Below are positions 13,963-42,043 of a stretch of DNA of 64,000 nt, one piece after another. The notes below the pieces were generated by a model, which saw nothing but the letters and a program-made list of their open reading frames with translations, ran no database searches and was not told the DNA's origin. The first letter of the stretch is position 1; the number at the start of each line of letters is the position of its first letter. Source of the DNA: an uncultured bacterium (GTDB lineage: Bacteria > Babelota > Babeliae > Babelales > Babelaceae). Made by a program: the position numbers and the translations under genes. The stretch spans positions 864,001 through 928,000 of the forward strand of contig OY970209.1 in NCBI GenBank assembly GCA_963713855.1, in the 5' to 3' direction.

Positions 13963-14737
13963 GGCGGGCAAGGCCTGCCTCTTTGGTCTTTTTAAAACTA
14001 AAAGTAAAAAGCACAAGAGCCGCAATTAAATAAAGAGTGCTTAGAACGTAGCTCATAGCTACTTGATTGAAGGGATTACGTCCCTCAAGTACTTCCTGGC
14101 GCAGTGCTCTAAAAATGTAGGTCATTGGCAATACAGATCCTATTTTTTGTAACCACGTTGGTAGTACCTCAGTCGGATAAAATACTCCACTTAGCGGGGC
14201 TGTAAGCCATACTGCAAGAAAGACGAACTCAGCCGCTCTCTTACCGCGGTAAACTACAACCTGGAGCGATAAAAGACCGAGTGCGAGGCTTGAAATAAAT
14301 AGGGGTGGGCCATAGAGAATGGTGCAGTGCCATAAAAAACTTGCGGGGATCATATAGAGGAGCTTAATGAGTATAGAGCAATAGAGAAAGATGACGAGAG
14401 CGGTCAATGCGCTATAAAATATTACGCCAATGATCCATTCACAAAGCCGTAAAGGCGTTGAAAAAAGTCCAGTAAGATTTTGCGACCAAAGCTCTTCCAA
14501 GAGACCGAAGCATACAATGATACTTCCTCTATTAACAATCTGCCAAAGAAAGATAGATCCTAAAAGCGCTTGCTGAAAGAGTGAGCCTTGCCCCTGTTGC
14601 ATCCACGTGCCAACATACCCCCAAATAACTATATCTAGAAATGGCCAGAACAAAAATGCGATTTGCATGTTGGTATCATGCAGTAAAAGCTTAATATGCC
14701 TTAAGGTTACTGCCCACGCATGCTCAATACTTATCAC
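13952..14737 (-). CDS. ABC-2 type exporter permease
   Basis: About six TMs, LSGVFYP..LP.WLQ motif, overlaps the ATPase stop. Confidence 0.88.
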   Translation of the reverse strand: MISIEHAWAVTLRHIKLLLHDTNMQIAFLFWPFLDIVIWGYVGTWMQQGQGSLFQQALLGSIFLWQIVNRGSIIVCFGLLEELWSQNLTGLFSTPLRLCEWIIGVIFYSALTALVIFLYCSILIKLLYMIPASFLWHCTILYGPPLFISSLALGLLSLQVVVYRGKRAAEFVFLAVWLTAPLSGVFYPTEVLPTWLQKIGSVLPMTYIFRALRQEVLEGRNPFNQVAMSYVLSTLYLIAALVLFTFSFKKTKEAGLARLMD

Positions 14738-15684
14738 GGTTGTACCTTTTTAACTTTACTTAAAAAATAATCTTCAAGCGTGGGAGTGTCGATTGATACA
14801 GTTACATAGGTAACACCCGCTCGTGCTAGATCAACAAGTACCTGAGCTATACGATCTTCTTGAGCTTCGATTTGTATGCCCTGCTTTTCAAGCAAATAGG
14901 TAAGATGATGTTTTTTGGCGTACCGAATAGCTTCTTCTAGTCCCTCTTGAATGACGAGATGAATATGTGCTTTTTTTATAGAGGCTGCTAAATTAATTGG
15001 CGTATCATCCGCTATGATACGTCCACATTGCATCATAAGCACCCTGTCGCAGACATCGGTAACCTCAGACATATTATGAGAAGTAAAAAGGACGGAAAGA
15101 CCAGTTCTTTCTCGCTCTTTCAAAATAAATGATCGAACCTCATTTGCAACTTCAGGGTCAAGCGATGCGGTTGGCTCGTCAAGTAGGATCAGGCGAGGAT
15201 TTGGCAAGAATGCTTTGACGAGAATAACGCGTGTCATTTGTCCAGCTGACAAGGTTCCTGTTCGTCTTTCAGAAAAGGAATCCATATGAAAAAGTGAAAG
15301 CAGGCTTTTTATGCGTTCATGCCTTTCTTTTACGGGCATGTTGTAGAGCCTGCCATAAATATCTAAATTATCCCAGACGCTCAAATTGGCGGGTAGTTTG
15401 TCATAGCCGCTTGCATGTGTTACAAAACTGAGAGCTTGAGGGCCTTTTTTGAGAAAATCTTGCCCGAAGTACGTGATGTTCCCTTTGCTTGGAGTAAGCG
15501 TGCCTGTAAGCATTTGAATAGTTGTTGTCTTTCCCGCACCGTTAACGCCAAGAAGACCAACAATTTCTCCCTTTTTAATTTGGCACGAGAGATTGTCGAC
15601 TGCCGTAAAGGTATTTTTAGTACCAAAAAAGCCTTTTCGCGTAGTAAATGTTTTAGTCAGGTTTTCTATGTCAAGTGGGATCAT
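14734..15684 (-). CDS. ABC exporter ATP-binding protein (DrrA/NodI-like)
   Basis: GVNGAGKTT, LSAGQ, LLDEPT, FTSHNM H-loop. Confidence 0.92.
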   Translation of the reverse strand: MIPLDIENLTKTFTTRKGFFGTKNTFTAVDNLSCQIKKGEIVGLLGVNGAGKTTTIQMLTGTLTPSKGNITYFGQDFLKKGPQALSFVTHASGYDKLPANLSVWDNLDIYGRLYNMPVKERHERIKSLLSLFHMDSFSERRTGTLSAGQMTRVILVKAFLPNPRLILLDEPTASLDPEVANEVRSFILKERERTGLSVLFTSHNMSEVTDVCDRVLMMQCGRIIADDTPINLAASIKKAHIHLVIQEGLEEAIRYAKKHHLTYLLEKQGIQIEAQEDRIAQVLVDLARAGVTYVTVSIDTPTLEDYFLSKVKKVQP

Positions 15685-36084: not shown

Positions 36085-37527
36085 ATGATCGGTTATATGC
36101 CTAAAAAACTACTTATTTTTCTTGCGATGGCCCCCTGCATTTTATATGGCATGGAAGTGGGTGAAGAAGAACCTACAAAAGTGGATTCTGAAGCTACGCG
36201 TATCGATCGGCAAAACATACTTACCGTTCTTGAAGATGCTTATAATAGTCAGCTTCAAAAAGATCTTCAATTTCTTTGTGAGCACGCTCTTGAAGATTGC
36301 TTTCTCTTTACTATTGTTTTGAAGTTTTTTGAAGGCAAGAACACGAACAGAATTATTAAAACAATTATTCAAAAAGGCGCTGCCCAGCTTACAGTTTATC
36401 GTAATGCTTGTTTTGAAGCTTTAACTTATAATGATATTAAGCTACTTAATTGGCTCCAGGATCGCGGATTTGATGTTATTGGCTGCAAATATGCGTTTGG
36501 AGAGAGTGGTGCTCATATAGCTGCTTCTTGGGATAACGTTATCGTATTAGAGTGGCTCTACTTACATGGCGCTGATTTTAATGCGCGAGACAGTGAAGGG
36601 GTTAAACCCTTTGATAGAGCGGCTAGGCGAGGCGCTACTAATGCGATGGAATGGTTTTTTAGGCACACGACACAAAGAGCAATCAGTCATGATTCATTAG
36701 ATAACATATTAAGCGGGCTTGAGAACGGAATTTATGTTTGTCTATGGAAAAAAGGTACGCAACTGCACTCGCCACTTATACCCCTCTTGTGGTTGTTCGA
36801 GCATGCTGCTCTCTTGACCGACCGACAAGACCTAAATGCACGTCTTGGCAGCATCTTACAAAGATGGCCCTTTTCTGGGGTGTTATTTCATGATTCTGCG
36901 ACACTTTTAGGACTCGTACGAAACCTCAAGCCTGATAAAGATACCCAATGTTTTAATCATATTTTCTTGTTTTTGGCCGGTCGAGGAGAAAATTTTGTTG
37001 AAATTGTGTTGGAAAAAAAAATAGTGATCAGCATTCAACTTTTAAGATTTGCCTTAGAAACCGCTCTGGCACGCGGTAAAAGGCAAGTATTTGAAGTACT
37101 TTTTACTCATCTGCGCTCACGTTTACTACCCTCTAATGAAATGGTGGGCGAGAGCGATGATAGCGAACAATGTAAGTTTCTTACCAGAGAACTTTTATAT
37201 TTATCTGTAATAAGAGATAGCCCAGAAATTATGGATTATTTGTTGAGCTTTACGCCGCATTTACGAGAAAACATAGAATGCGTATTGGATCGCCTTAATT
37301 ACCTCGTCGCCACTTTTCAGCACGAACCGGCTGTAATTGAGCGTCTGATTGGTGTTCGTGGTAGGCTCATTGATATCCTTGTGAGCAGCTTAGATAACGA
37401 GCTAGATGAAGAGCAGAAAGTTAAAAAGGGGATTTTCAGAGTTTTATTTCCTAACGCTACTGAAGATGTTCGTGATCTTCCCAGCGAATTGTGGCGAATA
37501 ATGATGCATAAAGCATACAGTTTATAA
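36085..37527 (+). CDS. Secreted ankyrin-repeat protein with C-terminal F-box/PRANC-like motif
   Basis: GESGAHIAA..LEWLYLHGADFNARDSEGVKPFDRAA; signal ..LYG-ME; ends DLPSELWRIMM. Confidence 0.8.
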   Translation: MIGYMPKKLLIFLAMAPCILYGMEVGEEEPTKVDSEATRIDRQNILTVLEDAYNSQLQKDLQFLCEHALEDCFLFTIVLKFFEGKNTNRIIKTIIQKGAAQLTVYRNACFEALTYNDIKLLNWLQDRGFDVIGCKYAFGESGAHIAASWDNVIVLEWLYLHGADFNARDSEGVKPFDRAARRGATNAMEWFFRHTTQRAISHDSLDNILSGLENGIYVCLWKKGTQLHSPLIPLLWLFEHAALLTDRQDLNARLGSILQRWPFSGVLFHDSATLLGLVRNLKPDKDTQCFNHIFLFLAGRGENFVEIVLEKKIVISIQLLRFALETALARGKRQVFEVLFTHLRSRLLPSNEMVGESDDSEQCKFLTRELLYLSVIRDSPEIMDYLLSFTPHLRENIECVLDRLNYLVATFQHEPAVIERLIGVRGRLIDILVSSLDNELDEEQKVKKGIFRVLFPNATEDVRDLPSELWRIMMHKAYSL

Positions 37528-37806
37528 CGACAGAGAGAAAATTTCGTCTACCATAATGTCTCATTATATCGGGAGCACGCGATGTCCATTTCAAATTGAC
37601 GATGGCGACTACCTTTTAAACGTGACGGACAAATTTACTTTCGAAGATTAAATTTGTCCAAGCTTTTAGCTCGAACTAGGACGAATTTAGTTCAATACCT
37701 CGATTTACGGGGCGAGCTTAATCACAGGGAAGGTAGCCCAAGCCGGCGATCATCTGGGACCTCTTAGGCTCGTGAACATCTCAGCGAAGTATTACGATAA
37801 AAGTTA

Positions 37807-37836
37807 TTGACAAGAAGTTTTGTCTAATGGTATTAT
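37807..37836 (+). promoter_or_regulatory. Sigma70-like promoter of the leader and ABC operon
   Basis: TTGACA (37807-37812), 18 nt, TATTAT (37831-37836) with extended -10 TG. Confidence 0.75.
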
Positions 37837-37880
37837 TACGATTGTTAGTGTTGTACTATACCTTTTAGAAGGAGCTTGCC

Positions 37881-38021
37881 ATGTTTTTAGTTGAGAGAAG
37901 CTTCTTTTCAAGAAGCCTTGATCTCTCGAAGAATATAAGTGGTATTTTTGATGCCACCTATCCATGCTATTGCTTTTCTCATCTCTATTTCTTTTCTCAC
38001 CGCACCCATCATCATTGCTAG
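37881..38021 (+). CDS. His-rich leader peptide (46 aa), not in the ORF track
   Basis: AAGGAG then ATG 37881; MFLVERSFFSRSLDLSKNISGIFDATYPCYCFSHLYFFSHRTHHHC*. Confidence 0.7.
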   Translation: MFLVERSFFSRSLDLSKNISGIFDATYPCYCFSHLYFFSHRTHHHC

Positions 38022-38110
38022 TTTTTTTGTTTTATTAGAGCAGTTTGGCTCTTATAGTAGCGTAACGTTTAAACCGCGTTAATGATCTTTTTTAAATAAC
38101 TTTATGGGTG
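38003..38110 (+). promoter_or_regulatory. Putative translational attenuator (His codons pair with the RBS)
   Basis: CACCCAT 38003-38009 is complementary to ATGGGTG 38104-38110; nested ATCATT/AATGAT, GCTA/TAGC, AGAGC/GCTCT and AACG/CGTT helices. Confidence 0.6.
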
Positions 38111-38114
38111 ACGT

Positions 38115-38900
38115 ATGTCAAAAAAAGTTTTAGTGGCATCTCTATGCCTGATAGCATTTTTCAGTAATTATTTTATGAGTAACGAGGAAAAAAGACCGGT
38201 AAAAACATTGACTGTGGGGATGATGAGCGGCTGGGCACCATTCATGTCGGTTAATGATAGCGGGAATTATGAAGGCTTCGACGTTGATGTAGCAAAAGCA
38301 CTTTCTGAGCGCTTGGGCGCACAATTGGTTATTAAGGACCTGGGATCACTTGCTTCCTGTTTTATTGCACTTCAACAAAATAGCGTTGATCTGGTTTTGT
38401 CTGGGCTTGATATAACCCAGAAACGTCTTGAAACTATGAACATGGTACCTTATCTTGGTAAGGGCTTTAAGGAATACTATTTGGTTTTTTGGAACGAAAT
38501 TCCCGCTGGAGTTTTAAAACTTGAAGACCTTAAGAATATACAAAATCCCGTCGTCTGTGTTGAGCCTGGTAATTCACCAGAAAAGTTTCTTGATCGTTAT
38601 GATTACATAACCAAAAAACAACTGAGCTCATTATCAGATATTGTACTTGATCTGGGGTACGGTAAATCGTTAGCGGCATTTCTTGAACCTCAAGTGGTAA
38701 AAAGATTGAGCCAAATACGACCAGAGATCGTTTCTTTGGCAGTGCCGTTGCCTGAGGAATTTCAGGTATTTGGATACGGAATTGCGTTACAAAAAAAGAA
38801 TACCGTTCTTACAAACGCTATCACAAGCATAATACAACAGCTAAGAACAGAAGGGCTTTTGCAGCAACTTGAAACAAAATGGAAAGTGGATGGGGTATAA
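38115..38900 (+). CDS. Polar amino-acid ABC transporter substrate-binding protein (possibly histidine)
   Basis: WAPF...GNYEGFDVDVAKAL, VDLVLSGLDITQKR, GYGIAL.K; no His in 261 aa. Confidence 0.9.
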   Translation: MSKKVLVASLCLIAFFSNYFMSNEEKRPVKTLTVGMMSGWAPFMSVNDSGNYEGFDVDVAKALSERLGAQLVIKDLGSLASCFIALQQNSVDLVLSGLDITQKRLETMNMVPYLGKGFKEYYLVFWNEIPAGVLKLEDLKNIQNPVVCVEPGNSPEKFLDRYDYITKKQLSSLSDIVLDLGYGKSLAAFLEPQVVKRLSQIRPEIVSLAVPLPEEFQVFGYGIALQKKNTVLTNAITSIIQQLRTEGLLQQLETKWKVDGV

Positions 38901-38902
38901 TC

Positions 38903-39565
38903 ATGGTGCTTTCATTTTTAAAAACAAGTGGCCCTCTTCTTGCTCAAGGAGCTTTCATGACGCTTTTTGTGTGGTTGGTAAGCAGCGTTATGGCGTTGGT
39001 CTTAGGTACTTTTTGGGGCGTCTTACGAAGTTACCACATGCGTATCAGGTATGTATCTTGCTTTCTTGACTTAGCATCATTCATATTGAGAGGAATTCCC
39101 TACTACGTACAACTTCTTATAGCCTATTTTGTCATTCCTCACATCGTCGGTATTAACGTATCAGCGCTCACCGCTGCAATCATTTCACTTGGCTTATGTT
39201 CTTCAGCGTACATAAGCCAAGTAGTATACGGTACCATGAATGCGTTGCCTTCCGGGCTATGGGAAGCGTGCTTTGTACTTGGATACTCATCATATCAAGC
39301 ACTCATACGAGTTATTTTGCCTCTGACAGTGCGTAATGCGTTACCAGTATTTATCAATGAACTAGATCAGCTTCTTAAGACAACGGCGATCCTTTCAACG
39401 ATTGGTATTCTCGAATTGACGCGTGCGGGCATGAATATTATTGCACGTGAAATGAACCCGATACCTGTCTATCTAACACTTGCTCTTATATACCTAGCAG
39501 CCTCAACCGTACTTACTCTTGTCTCCCGCGTTGTCGAAAAAAGGATGTCTTATGTTGTCAGGTAA
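38903..39565 (+). CDS. Polar amino-acid ABC transporter permease (HisM/GlnP family)
   Basis: RGIP..VQLL, SSAYISQ, EAA-like LWEACFVLG, LLKTTA. Confidence 0.9.
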   Translation: MVLSFLKTSGPLLAQGAFMTLFVWLVSSVMALVLGTFWGVLRSYHMRIRYVSCFLDLASFILRGIPYYVQLLIAYFVIPHIVGINVSALTAAIISLGLCSSAYISQVVYGTMNALPSGLWEACFVLGYSSYQALIRVILPLTVRNALPVFINELDQLLKTTAILSTIGILELTRAGMNIIAREMNPIPVYLTLALIYLAASTVLTLVSRVVEKRMSYVVR

Positions 39566-40268
39566 TATAAAACGATTGTCATATAATAAGGCGCCGATTC
39601 TTACAGATATTTCATGTACTATTGAGTACGGACGAATCACGAGCTTTATTGGAAAAAGCGGATCGGGAAAAACGACCCTATTGCGGTGTCTTGCTGGACT
39701 TGAAAAAACCTATGAAGGCTTGGTTACGCTTGATGGAAATGATATTGGTACATTTGAGGCGCAGCAACGTGCTGAGGCTCTCGGTTTTGTTGCTCAAAAT
39801 GTATATCTTTTTCCACAGCTTACTGCAATCCAAAATTGTGTACAACCCTTGCGTGTTGTAAAAAATGTGCCAAAGGATGTGGCTGTGGACAAGGCTTTTA
39901 CCGTTTTGAAGAGCCTTGGTATGGAAACATTTGCTGATAACTATCCTGGACAGCTTTCCGGCGGTCAGCAGCAACGAGTTGCTCTTGCGCGAGCATTGTG
40001 CTTAGAGCCGAAGATACTGTTGCTTGATGAGCCAACGTCCGCGCTTGATCCCGAAAATACGGCTATAGTTGCCCAGCTACTAAAGCGGCTAACAGAACAA
40101 GGTATTGGTATTGGTGTTTCAAGTCAGGATACGGGTTTTATACGCAGCATCATGGACAGAGTTTACTTAATCGAGGCAGGCTCTATCACTGCTCAATTAG
40201 ATAAAAAAGTATGCAATCAAATGAATGAAAATATTCCAATTTCAGTCTTTTTAAAAAATGTTACATAA
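39552..40268 (+). CDS. Polar amino-acid ABC transporter ATPase (HisP/GlnQ family), H-loop His replaced by Gln
   Basis: GKSGSGKTT, YPGQLSGGQQQRVALARAL, LLDEPTSALDPE, VSSQD; no His in 238 aa. Confidence 0.9.
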   Translation: MLSGNIKRLSYNKAPILTDISCTIEYGRITSFIGKSGSGKTTLLRCLAGLEKTYEGLVTLDGNDIGTFEAQQRAEALGFVAQNVYLFPQLTAIQNCVQPLRVVKNVPKDVAVDKAFTVLKSLGMETFADNYPGQLSGGQQQRVALARALCLEPKILLLDEPTSALDPENTAIVAQLLKRLTEQGIGIGVSSQDTGFIRSIMDRVYLIEAGSITAQLDKKVCNQMNENIPISVFLKNVT

Positions 40269-40355
40269 AACGATATGATCATTAGGCTTTTGTCTTTATT
40301 TAAATCGTAAATATCGTATAATGAAACTATTATGATAGTTACAAAGTGAGACTTT

Positions 40356-41281
40356 ATGAAAAAATATCTATTGTTTTTTACGTGCATTTACTTATTTAGT
40401 GGTGCATCTGTGTCGCAATCGATGCATCAAAATAGTTCCTCAGAGGATCAGGTGCAAGGGGCCGATAATAACGATCATTTTATGCTGGGAGTTTTTCTAG
40501 GAGCGGTTCTTTTAAGCGATCTTGAAACGATTGATATTGCGATGGATACTCTCATGGACCAAGATACGATTTCGCCAAAGTGGCTCGAAGCGATAAAAGA
40601 CGCCCTTGAGAGAGCTGATTGGGAACAAGATCAAGAAACAGCAGACCACGTACGAATGCGGCTTAGGCTCATTGAACAAAGCCAGGCCGAAAGGGCGCGA
40701 GGTACTGGTTCCCGCGATGAGAAACCGACGCCTAGACAAGGTCCTAGATTGCCAATTTGGGTTGAGATAATCCGCGGCATAGATGCTTCTGAATCCCCTA
40801 TTATTGAAGAAGAAGAAGGATTCTGGTACAGAGTTGTTCCGCAGAGAGAGAATTGTTGACGTGGCTGAAGCTTAATGCGCCAGAAAGAGCGCGAGAAAGA
40901 GAAGAGCGATTAAGTAAAAGACGTCGGGAAGCTAGGTTAAGGGAAATAGAGCGAAGAAATGCCCAGCTAGGCCAACCGGAAAGAGAGCAACAAAAGGAAT
41001 CACGTTTCATGATTACAAGACCTCAAGACGTTACTCCACGTGGAGATTCTTATTACGGAGAAGTAACGAATAATCCTGACCTTTTATTTCCTCACGTATT
41101 TAACGCCGCATTTAGCCAGTCTGCTCATCGAGAACAAATGAGGCAACTTTTGGGTCAGCTCCCGGGTAATTCGCTGAGAGAGCAATTTCAAAATTGTGTT
41201 TACAACCTGCAAGTATTCTTTGCGATAGTAATGCTTGTTATCAGGCAAGGCGGACTGCAACGTTATGCGCAGTCTTTTTAA
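40356..41281 (+). pseudogene. Secreted protein split by a 2-bp shift in an (AG)4 tract (ORFs 40356..40859 and 40853..41281)
   Basis: Removing one AG at 40843-40851 fuses ..VVPQR-ELLTWLKL..; signal peptide only on the first ORF, hydrophobic helix only at the end of the second. Confidence 0.55.
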
Positions 41282-41410: not shown

Positions 41411-42043
41411 ATGAAGAAGTTTGCATTTTTAGCTTGTCTTTTAGTTACTTATCTTGTTAAAGGCGAAGGATTTATTGCTGGAACGCTTGTAAAAACTGTG
41501 GATGGTTATCGACCGATAGAGGAAATAAAAGTAGGAGCTTCGGTTACCAGTCTTAATTTCGAGGGTTCTTGCGGTAAGTTTAGCTTTTTTCAATCAGATA
41601 TTGAAGGCGAAGTGACCAATGTGTACGCGAGAGAGGTCGATAGACTTATTAAAATCACTGTCGATAATCAAACGATAGTTGTGGCGGCAGATCAGAAATT
41701 TTTTCTTCCCCTAAATCTGCATAAGCCCTGGATAGAAGCAAGTGAGTTGCGTCCAGGCCACATGGTCTTGAAAAACTGCACAGACTTAGCTCCTGTTACT
41801 AGCATAGAAATAAGTGAAGCTAAAAGTACTGTCTACAGTATTTCAGTAAAAAATTATCCTAATTTCAGCGTATCCTTACTCGATATACAAGTGCACAATC
41901 ATGATCAAGAGATGTCTGACTACGATGTAGAGTATGATTCATCCGATGATAGTCGCTCTTTGTTTAGCTTTCTAGCTGCTATGGTGCTTTCATTCATTGT
42001 GGTACGTTTAATGGCTGAGGAAGAACGAGTTTGCCAGTGGTAA
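41411..42043 (+). CDS. Secreted Hint (BIL/PT-HINT-like) domain protein with short C-terminal peptide
   Basis: Signal peptide; EGFIAGTLVKTVDGYRPIEEIKVG, WIEASELRPG, VYSISV...NFSV....IQVHN. Confidence 0.85.
   Translation: MKKFAFLACLLVTYLVKGEGFIAGTLVKTVDGYRPIEEIKVGASVTSLNFEGSCGKFSFFQSDIEGEVTNVYAREVDRLIKITVDNQTIVVAADQKFFLPLNLHKPWIEASELRPGHMVLKNCTDLAPVTSIEISEAKSTVYSISVKNYPNFSVSLLDIQVHNHDQEMSDYDVEYDSSDDSRSLFSFLAAMVLSFIVVRLMAEEERVCQW

Follow-up and report, generated by a model that had tools for sequence, protein, structure and literature searches.

A probable histidine importer nearly devoid of histidine, encoded behind a His-codon leader in Dependentiae

Introduction

Why would a bacterium build an amino-acid importer almost without histidine (His), down to a glutamine (Gln) in place of the switch His in the H-loop of its ATPase? 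The question is raised by three tightly packed, co-directional genes at positions 38115-40268 of a 64,000-nucleotide (nt) stretch of contig OY970209.1 (assembly GCA_963713855.1, contig positions 864,001 to 928,000, forward strand), hereafter the window, from an uncultured bacterium of the Babelaceae. The genes encode the binding protein, permease and ATPase of an ATP-binding cassette (ABC) importer, and the genome that holds them (G000) is one contig of 1.52 Mb with 41.4% G+C. An earlier reading of the letters, here called the original prediction, proposed a His-scavenging transporter that was selected to be translatable during His starvation and is coupled to a His leader.

Based on the window and on relatives of the operon across the phylum, we consider it likely that the critical cargo of this importer is histidine, possibly together with other basic amino acids, that its host is a His auxotroph, that a leader rich in His codons controls the operon, and that the operon's own His codons have been purged.

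Results

Histidine in the importer operon and its relatives

The counts of the original prediction, no His in the binding protein and the ATPase and two in the permease, proved exact on recount, and the ATPase is His-free from either of its starts, the ATG at 39552 or an alternative TTG at 39519 that gives 249 residues. As a chance baseline we used a crude set of 1218 open reading frames (ORFs) of at least 100 residues from the 1.52-Mb genome, in which His makes up 2.23% of residues. The test against the proteome His frequency that had been called for gives probabilities of 0.0028 for no His in 261 residues and 0.0047 for none in 238, and at the same frequency the probability of two or fewer His in 719 residues is 1.4e-5. 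Across all 1216 runs of three consecutive ORFs in the genome, the importer operon has the lowest His (rank 1), and 11 of the 895 ORFs of at least 200 residues are His-free. The only other SBP_bac_3 importer found in the genome (C1:471567-473817) has 5, 3 and 9 His and a canonical VATHD H-loop; with its normal His content, it is a within-genome contrast to the window operon.

One His-free binding protein is unremarkable alone, because the SBP_bac_3 family is generally His-poor, and the weight rests on the conserved pattern across relatives. As the original prediction would have it, the orthologues are also His-poor: among the 120 nearest homologues of the binding protein (44-65% identity), 86 contain no His and 26 contain one. 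The named nearest homologues all belong to Dependentiae, TM6 or Babeliales. A search of all 261 genomes of the phylum placed binding-protein orthologues in 90 genomes, at 103 places, of which 91 were analysed; the 12 omitted were the weakest, partial or stop-containing ones, two of them with in-frame stops. Four further loci were dropped, two with truncated upstream regions (L057, L085) and two in which binding protein and permease are fused (L019, L103), leaving 87 loci in 76 genomes. The two fusions (genomes G018 and G052) are proteins of ~485 residues with 7-8 His, accompanied by no leader and no HisR gene.

A leader ORF that ends in His codons

A small ORF upstream of the window operon looks like a translated leader: AAGGAG precedes its ATG by 6 nt, and it contains a run of three His codons with another two close by (Table 1). 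Its tail reads HRTHHHC-stop, with His codons at 37980-37982 and 37998-38000 and CAT CAT CAT at 38007-38015, and 93 nt separate its stop from the ATG of the binding-protein gene. In a sister locus (L011) the corresponding ORF ends ...SVHSFHHLHHHCH-stop.

We scored as a leader any same-strand small ORF within 700 nt upstream that has 4-9 His among its last 14 residues. The scan is positive in 36 of the 87 loci (41%) and in 28 of 1218 control upstream regions of G000 (2.3%), nearly all of the latter with just 4 His. A Shine-Dalgarno-like motif and ATG stand in the His frame in 33 of the 36 leader loci, compared with 5 of 72 other frames. The His leader on which the original prediction leaned is thus real and conserved. 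Its homologues vary from 28 to 64 codons (median 39) and their N-terminal parts are unconserved among loci; the tails are as diverse as ...NAHHHHHHHSN-stop, ...SLSHHHHHHTH-stop, ...ISHHHHTHHLHHTH-stop and ...LHHPHHHCH-stop. In 20 of 36 cases the ORF ends in Ser, Cys or Thr, then His, then the stop (SH 11, CH 6, TH 3), the stop is TAA in 32 of 36, and the His codons are CAT (191) and CAC (32).

The remaining 51 loci comprise 31 that have a HisR-type gene instead of a leader and 20 that have neither. A metagenome scan contributed seven close loci among the 80 kept, four with a leader, two with a HisR-like gene and one with neither; a contig search with the window binding protein alone gave just two relevant loci. 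On one metagenomic contig (L023) a leader ending ...PCHHHHI-stop precedes a His-free binding protein, and the H-loop of the ATPase carries Gln (AIASQDMA). This 13-kb contig with the full design is labelled as a metagenome-assembled genome of Verrucomicrobiota, outside the phylum, and reflects either a binning error or spread beyond Dependentiae.

A HisR-type regulator in place of the leader, and loss of His synthesis

In 32 loci, 31 of them without a leader, a TrpR-family gene of ~100 codons stands directly upstream of the importer on the same strand. It matches TIGR02531 (YerC/YecD) at 76.7 bits against a cut-off of 42.2, and PF01371 (Trp_repressor) at 80.5 bits. Among solved structures it is closest to 3FRW, 3KOR and 3G1C (E = 1e-13 to 1e-16; 3G1C 3e-13), with classical TrpR at ~1e-5. 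YerC has been identified as HisR, a repressor that requires L-His for DNA binding; its targets are his operons and the hisXYZ importer, the latter often joined with hisR in one operon (hisR-hisXYZ) in auxotrophs, and 3G1C is used there as the HisR of Eubacterium eligens (PMC9413887).

The HisR-type gene occurs in 36 of the phylum's 261 genomes, never in more than one copy, and in 34 of those 36 it lies no more than 0.5 kb upstream of the importer. Among the 36 leader genomes only one (locus L067) also has it, and it was not found in the window genome. Before the HisR-type genes of 30 loci (e.g., L016:3213-3524 with 150 nt upstream), a 20-bp palindrome close to TGTGCTATCATGATAGCACA lies over the -10 box, overlapping a TATCAT that follows TTGACA by 17 bp. 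The 7-mer TAGCACA is present in 17 of the 30 upstream regions; in 100 shuffles, no non-AT 7-mer reached more than 12. The operator consensus of Firmicutes HisR was not enriched in the phylum (mean best score 8.87, versus 8.61 in shuffles). The palindrome suggests an autoregulated operator that is unlike the published Firmicutes HisR motif. A second type of small ORF with His codons (...CHHHARC..., three HisR loci) was set aside; judging from its position, it is an out-of-frame reading of the HisR-like helix-turn-helix region.

The biosynthetic gene hisD was found in none of the 261 genomes, with 14 of 14 controls positive, and in G000 hisF was not found and hisS was. From this gene content, both the host and its phylum are predicted to be unable to make histidine. 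With no hisD in the phylum, there is therefore no biosynthetic operon for a His regulator to act on, and the gene beside the regulator is the importer, which suggests that the HisR family is in this phylum dedicated to the importer operon. From position and conservation, we infer that the leader or the HisR-type gene controls the importer.

His content follows the type of regulator

Mean His numbers in binding protein, permease and ATPase are 0.50, 0.72 and 2.39 in the 36 leader loci, 1.74, 1.37 and 3.25 in the 31 HisR loci, and 4.90, 3.29 and 7.35 in the 20 loci with neither; His-free binding proteins number 28 of 36, 6 of 31 and 0 of 20, respectively. The trend also holds inside genomes: 10 genomes have both a regulated and an unregulated paralogue, and in every one of them it is the regulated binding protein that is poorer in His (0 versus 8, 0 versus 10, 0 versus 3, 0 versus 4, 5 versus 7, 3 versus 7, 2 versus 4, 1 versus 3, 1 versus 3 and 1 versus 8). 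Two paralogous binding-protein genes ~2 kb apart were observed in one genome (L049 and L104, G244:C1:206785-213873); its leader-bearing copy is His-rich for the class (5, 2 and 7 His), and the leader ends ...HPHHRHTHKRLCA-stop, not in a His run.

The gradient may have a mechanistic reason. A leader would switch on only once ribosomes stall at His codons, which would make each such codon in the induced genes a liability; a repressor that reads free His could act earlier.

Just one position of the binding protein cleanly separates the paralogues, residue 150 (in VCVEPG), which is Glu in 98% of the regulated copies and Gln or Leu in the unregulated ones. The position probably corresponds to a side-chain-contacting residue of HisJ/LAO.

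Glutamine at the switch position of the ATPase

Both codons at which Gln had been reported in place of His, one in LFPQ and one in the H-loop, are CAG on re-reading (Table 1). The motifs that were said to be intact could be read again in the window ATPase, namely Walker A (GKSGSGKTT), LSGGQ, Walker B (LLLDEPT) and the D-loop (SALD), as could the Q-loop Gln, and the second ABC ATPase in the window (14734-15684, minus strand) indeed retains LFTSH.

The H-loop Gln is neither private to the window genome nor a marker of leader loci. Its carriers among the 120 nearest homologues include members of Dependentiae/TM6 and of Chlamydiota (P0036, P0072, P0086). Among the same 120, ATPases of the Gln type have a mean of 2.69 His (16 of 91 are His-free; maximum 12), and those of the His type a mean of 5.89, with none His-free. 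Divided by locus type, the ratio of Gln to His at the H-loop is 18 to 12 in leader loci, 26 to 2 in HisR loci and 2 to 14 in unregulated loci. The idea that Gln switches co-occur with His leaders therefore does not hold, since HisR loci carry Gln more consistently. An importer that is translatable during starvation and is coupled to a His leader, the core of the original prediction, stands insofar as His content tracks the regulator in the relatives; the part that tied the H-loop Gln to the leader does not.

On the tree, Gln is nearly confined to regulated lineages, with several switches back to His, and CAY to CAR is a single third-position change. Among the 46 Gln-type ATPases of the phylum sample, neither the Q-loop Gln nor the [L/I]SGGQ signature is lost in a single case; Walker B is DEP[T/S] with the catalytic Glu in at least 40 of 46, and Walker A is present in most, among the variants listed. 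We read the H-loop Gln as a substitute that probably works throughout the clade, arose in a His-regulated lineage and would be roughly neutral relative to His there. His sparing can be at most a contributing cause of it, because the Gln switch is old and widespread and some carriers have up to 12 His elsewhere.

RNA features around the leader stop

Between the leader and the binding-protein gene, a terminator-like hairpin with a T-run is found in 20 of 36 loci, compared with 8.0 +/- 2.1 (maximum 14) in 100 shuffles; in the window, the T-run begins 6 nt past the stem. A hairpin at the leader stop codon has z < -1.5 in 21 of the 36 leader loci (mean z -1.41; Wilcoxon p = 2e-4). In loci that end ...HHHCH-stop, the 5' arm of this hairpin consists of the Cys-His codons (UGCCA) and the 3' arm lies past the stop (UGGCA); other loci have other arms, such as GCUCA/UGAGC and AUUGCA/UGCAAU.

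The composition of the leader RNA is also distinctive. Over ~135 nt (-90 to +45 around the stop) it is G-poor (6-13% G), and just before the stop it is C-rich, with C at 0.29-0.39 and G at 0.06-0.09 in the last 45 nt of the leaders; the first 30 nt past the stop have T at 0.47-0.52 (36 loci). This is the composition expected of a candidate loading site for Rho, which is encoded in G000 (640 bits).

Features of the window operon and its neighbourhood

The coordinates are collected in Table 1. The promoter-like site is the best within 37400-40500. The N-terminal part of the permease matches TIGR01726, the three-transmembrane-helix (3-TM) domain of His/Glu/Gln/Arg/opine permeases, at 67.1 bits against a cut-off of 42.2, and the ATPase falls below every NCBIfam equivalog cut-off, the best being GlnQ (174 versus 379 bits), followed by ArtP (152 versus 369) and HisP (131 versus 466).

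Table 1. Features of the importer operon and its upstream region, in window coordinates.
Feature	Position	Strand	Remarks
Promoter-like site	37807..37836	+	TTGACA, 18-nt spacer, TATTAT, TG before the -10 hexamer; 11/12 consensus match only
Shine-Dalgarno motif	37869..37874	+	AAGGAG, 6 nt before the leader ATG; read in sequence
Leader ORF	37881..38021	+	46 codons and TAG (38019-38021); ends ...CFSHLYFFSHRTHHHC-stop, tail also given as ...SHLYFFSHRTHHHC; homologues in 35 other loci
Seven-T run	38022..38028	+	directly after the leader stop; read in sequence
Weak terminator-like hairpin	38063..38093	+	TAACGTTTAAACCGCGTTA (38063-38081), then ATGATC and TTTTTT (38088-38093); 6 pairs, 2 G-C
Substrate-binding protein	38115..38900	+	261 residues, 0 His; PF00497, 82 bits versus 26.4-bit cut-off
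Permease	38903..39565	+	220 residues, 2 His; PF00528, 58.6 bits; GlnP-like; alternative ATG 38879
ATPase	39552..40268	+	ATG 39552; 238 residues, 0 His; PF00005, 124.7 bits
CAG (Gln) at the position of the LFPH His of most relatives	39816..39818	+	120 nearest: H 77, N 17, Q 14, F 9, T 2, S 1
CAG (Gln) at the H-loop (switch) position, SSQD	40125..40127	+	120 nearest: Q 91, H 28, R 1

The operon is flanked by a gene for an ankyrin-repeat protein (Ank_2/Ank_4; 36085-37527) and by one for a secreted-looking protein of 210 residues with a HINT/pretoxin-HINT domain (41411-42043). Two ORFs without a family match (40356-40859 and 40853-41281) lie between the importer and the HINT protein. Elsewhere in the genome, a His-poor run of ORFs (G000:C1:511606-516208) includes the longest His-free ORF of the genome (407 residues; 511606-512829). 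The ORFs adjoining the latter start prepilin-like (...GFTLVEV...), and the run is presumably a secretion or pilus cluster unrelated to His.

Discussion

Proposed mode of control

Under the reading that we favour, an importer of histidine under leader control, scarcity of charged tRNA-His would stall ribosomes on the final leader codons and so let transcription or expression run on into the operon; with plentiful His, the leader would be read through to its stop and expression cut short. The pump would be needed exactly when His codons are hard to translate, so that selection may have removed nearly all His codons from the three genes. In related genomes, an autoregulated HisR-type repressor would control the operon instead, with milder His depletion. 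The H-loop Gln would be a functional, clade-wide replacement of the switch His, one that fits the depletion trend and is not explained by that trend alone. As to how a stalled ribosome might be read out, it plausibly either covers the stop-proximal hairpin or terminator, or blocks the loading of Rho on the C-rich, G-poor leader RNA.

A more ambitious version would make this a phylum-wide, starvation-proof His importer whose leader works without a classical antiterminator, whose purging extends to the switch His and yields a functional homodimer with Gln at both H-loops, and whose degree of purging is set by the type of sensor. We regard this version as possible and put it forward tentatively.

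Evidence on the other side and rival explanations

Several observations weigh against a leader-controlled His importer: (i) The nearest solved binding proteins are the arginine-binding chlamydial ArtJ structures, 3DEL (E = 8e-31, residues 32-259), 3N26 and 3QAX (1e-29 to 1e-31), and HisJ matches the binding protein only at 7e-10. (ii) The operon is lacking in 171 of the 261 genomes, His-auxotrophic as these are, including a genome of the same genus (G001); other routes of His uptake must therefore exist. (iii) Distant SBP_bac_3 relatives, compared for their binding proteins only, average 1.98 His (0.75%), and 5 of these 41 are His-free. (iv) The association of leaders with His-free binding proteins is largely clade-wise. 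In a tree of 83 loci, two clades take in most of the unregulated copies, leader and HisR loci interleave, and the leader label changes at least 8 times on well-supported branches; only 7 well-supported independent pairs result, with on average 4.0 in the expected direction, 0.3 in the opposite direction and 2.7 without a difference (median sign-test p = 0.125). The raw Fisher test (28/36 versus 6/51, p = 3.5e-10) overstates the evidence, the loci not being independent. (v) The window leader is among the weakest, with 5 tail His and a terminator-like stem that has 2 G-C pairs. The window is without a stop-codon hairpin (z = 0.05), the fold of its leader region is not significant (z = -0.96), and a permissive Rfam cmscan of 37400-38300 returned no RF00514, no T-box and no plausible family, only chance-level matches of the small nucleolar RNA type. 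(vi) A classical terminator/antiterminator switch is not supported, as the modelled position of the ribosome had no effect: in constrained partition-function folding of 17 loci, a ribosome stalled on His gave a terminator probability of 0.75, and one at the stop gave 0.77 (p = 0.80).

The first of these points raises the question of whether the importer might serve mainly arginine or lysine, as chlamydial ArtJ does, with His a side substrate at most and the His regulators present for some other purpose. The best NCBIfam model of the binding protein, TIGR01096 of the Lys/Arg/Orn subfamily, points the same way, though at 86.6 bits it is below its cut-off of 256, and the acidic Glu150 would suit any basic side chain. 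The resemblance to ArtJ does not exclude His, because the Geobacillus protein GsArtJ binds Arg, Lys and His (preprint 10.1101/350942). Moreover, the devices that take turns at this operon, His-codon leader and HisR-family repressor, are unrelated to each other and both His-specific, and the depleted residue is His, the residue for which depletion was measured. Better candidates for Arg importers would be the unregulated paralogues with Gln or Leu at position 150, because their Gln150 matches the Gln that CtArtJ has there in the alignment with the binding protein. Overall, we find an importer mainly for arginine or lysine unlikely.

Drift in protein classes that are His-poor anyway, below His-rich ORFs that regulate nothing, could draw on the distant relatives under (iii), on the independent-pairs test, which is not significant, and on the insignificant fold of the window leader RNA. 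It is very improbable in view of the 86 His-free binding proteins among 120 homologues, the three-step gradient by regulator with its 10 of 10 within-genome comparisons, the first rank of the operon among 1216 ORF triples, and the excess both of in-frame translation starts (33/36 versus 5/72) and of leader-scan hits (41% versus 2.3%). Tails such as HHHCH resemble metal-binding motifs, so the small ORF might instead encode a His/Cys-rich peptide that binds metal, or a metal-sensing arrest peptide, making the operon responsive to metal; yet the genes downstream encode a polar-amino-acid importer rather than anything for metals, the regulator that replaces the leader belongs to the HisR family, the N-terminal parts of the peptide are unconserved, and most loci have Ser or Thr in place of the Cys, whose codon, where present, forms the 5' arm of the UGCCA...UGGCA hairpin. 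We give such a metal response hardly any credence. That the H-loop Gln marks an inactive or decaying ATPase, and hence a non-functional transporter, is the reading we believe least. In model ABC proteins, the H-loop His plays an important part in hydrolysis (PMC7756269), but in the second nucleotide-binding domain (NBD2) of MRP1 its replacement by Gln or Asn leaves transport like that of the wild type, other replacements abolishing it (PMC7756269). Moreover, Gln occupies the position in 91 of 120 nearest homologues, the Q-loop Gln and signature are kept in 46 of 46 Gln-type ATPases and Walker A and B in most, and all importer genes of the 87 usable loci are intact (in-frame stops occur in 2 of the 12 omitted places). 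Decay of the ATPase, which the original prediction had listed as a possible refutation, is thus ruled against.

Relation to known systems

The closest parallel to the favoured reading, a His importer under His-specific control, is hisXYZ. Control of His importers by HisR or by a His T-box is described for Firmicutes, Actinobacteria and others (PMC9413887). As in the hisR-hisXYZ arrangement of auxotrophs, a three-gene ABC importer stands under a His-specific regulator (Firmicutes HisXYZ sequences lay outside the comparison), and in 32 loci a TIGR02531 gene is upstream, with a palindromic operator over the -10 box. Unlike hisXYZ, the window genome has a leader ORF and no HisR, and the Firmicutes operator consensus is not enriched in the phylum; the accessible part of PMC9413887 mentions neither His depletion nor an H-loop Gln.

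A His leader precedes the his operon of enterobacteria (RF00514); attenuators with His leaders are described for his operons and for hisS or hisZ, and have been proposed in the Bacillus cereus group, Peptostreptococcaceae and Erysipelotrichales (PMC9413887; PMC2965389). They share with the loci described here a small translated reading frame that contains consecutive His codons, ahead of a His-related operon, and terminator-like hairpins, present here in 20 of 36 loci. They differ in their target, which here is an importer and not biosynthesis or hisS, and in the place of the His run, which here is at the very end of the ORF, typically ...HHH[SCT]H-stop; moreover, RF00514 has no match here and modelling gave no alternative antiterminator.

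Chlamydial ArtJ is the closest solved relative of the binding protein, and both come from intracellular bacteria; the ATPase homologues of Chlamydiota (P0036, P0072, P0086) share the H-loop Gln. In contrast to the window protein, ArtJ is reported to bind Arg, has Gln at position 150 and contains several His in the aligned part of 3DEL. With respect to the ATPase, the NBD2 mutants of MRP1 are comparable in that the switch His is replaced, and Gln or Asn supports transport there (PMC7756269). Non-canonical H-loops are otherwise known from the ABCB2/B3 (TAP) heterodimer, the ABCA subfamily, CFTR and nucleotide-binding site 1 (NBS1) of Pdr5, where they mark the one degenerate site of asymmetric exporters (PMC7756269). 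Here, unlike in these exporters, a single ATPase gene would place Gln at both sites of a presumed homodimer, judging from the architecture of the family, and the other motifs are canonical.

Cognate amino-acid bias has been described for biosynthetic enzymes (PMC4209129), and the similarity is that proteins which relieve starvation for an amino acid contain little of it. In that work, which concerns biosynthetic pathways and whose accessible text contains the word transporter 0 times, there is no counterpart to the importer of an auxotroph in which two of three proteins have no His at all and the depletion scales with the regulator. A literature search, with most subscription journals outside it, found in print no His leader before a Dependentiae importer, no His purging of an importer graded by its regulator and no natural importer clade with an H-loop Gln; the search for leader peptides in Dependentiae gave nothing relevant.

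Implications

Under the favoured reading, leader-peptide control would also operate on an uptake system, and in a phylum for which it is new. A read-out of ribosome stalling that differs from the classical one is likely, given a His run placed right at the stop codon and the lack of a recognisable antiterminator. The operon also offers a clean natural experiment on cognate depletion, as one and the same set of genes stands under a translational sensor, under a repressor or under neither, and its His content rises in that order, even between paralogues of one genome. In addition, importer ATPases whose switch His is replaced by Gln, with all other motifs intact, form a large natural clade on which the debated role of this His in catalysis could be tested directly. 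For Dependentiae, an 'amino acid ABC transporter' that was otherwise anonymous gains a likely role, and its design should allow the pump to be made just as histidine runs out.

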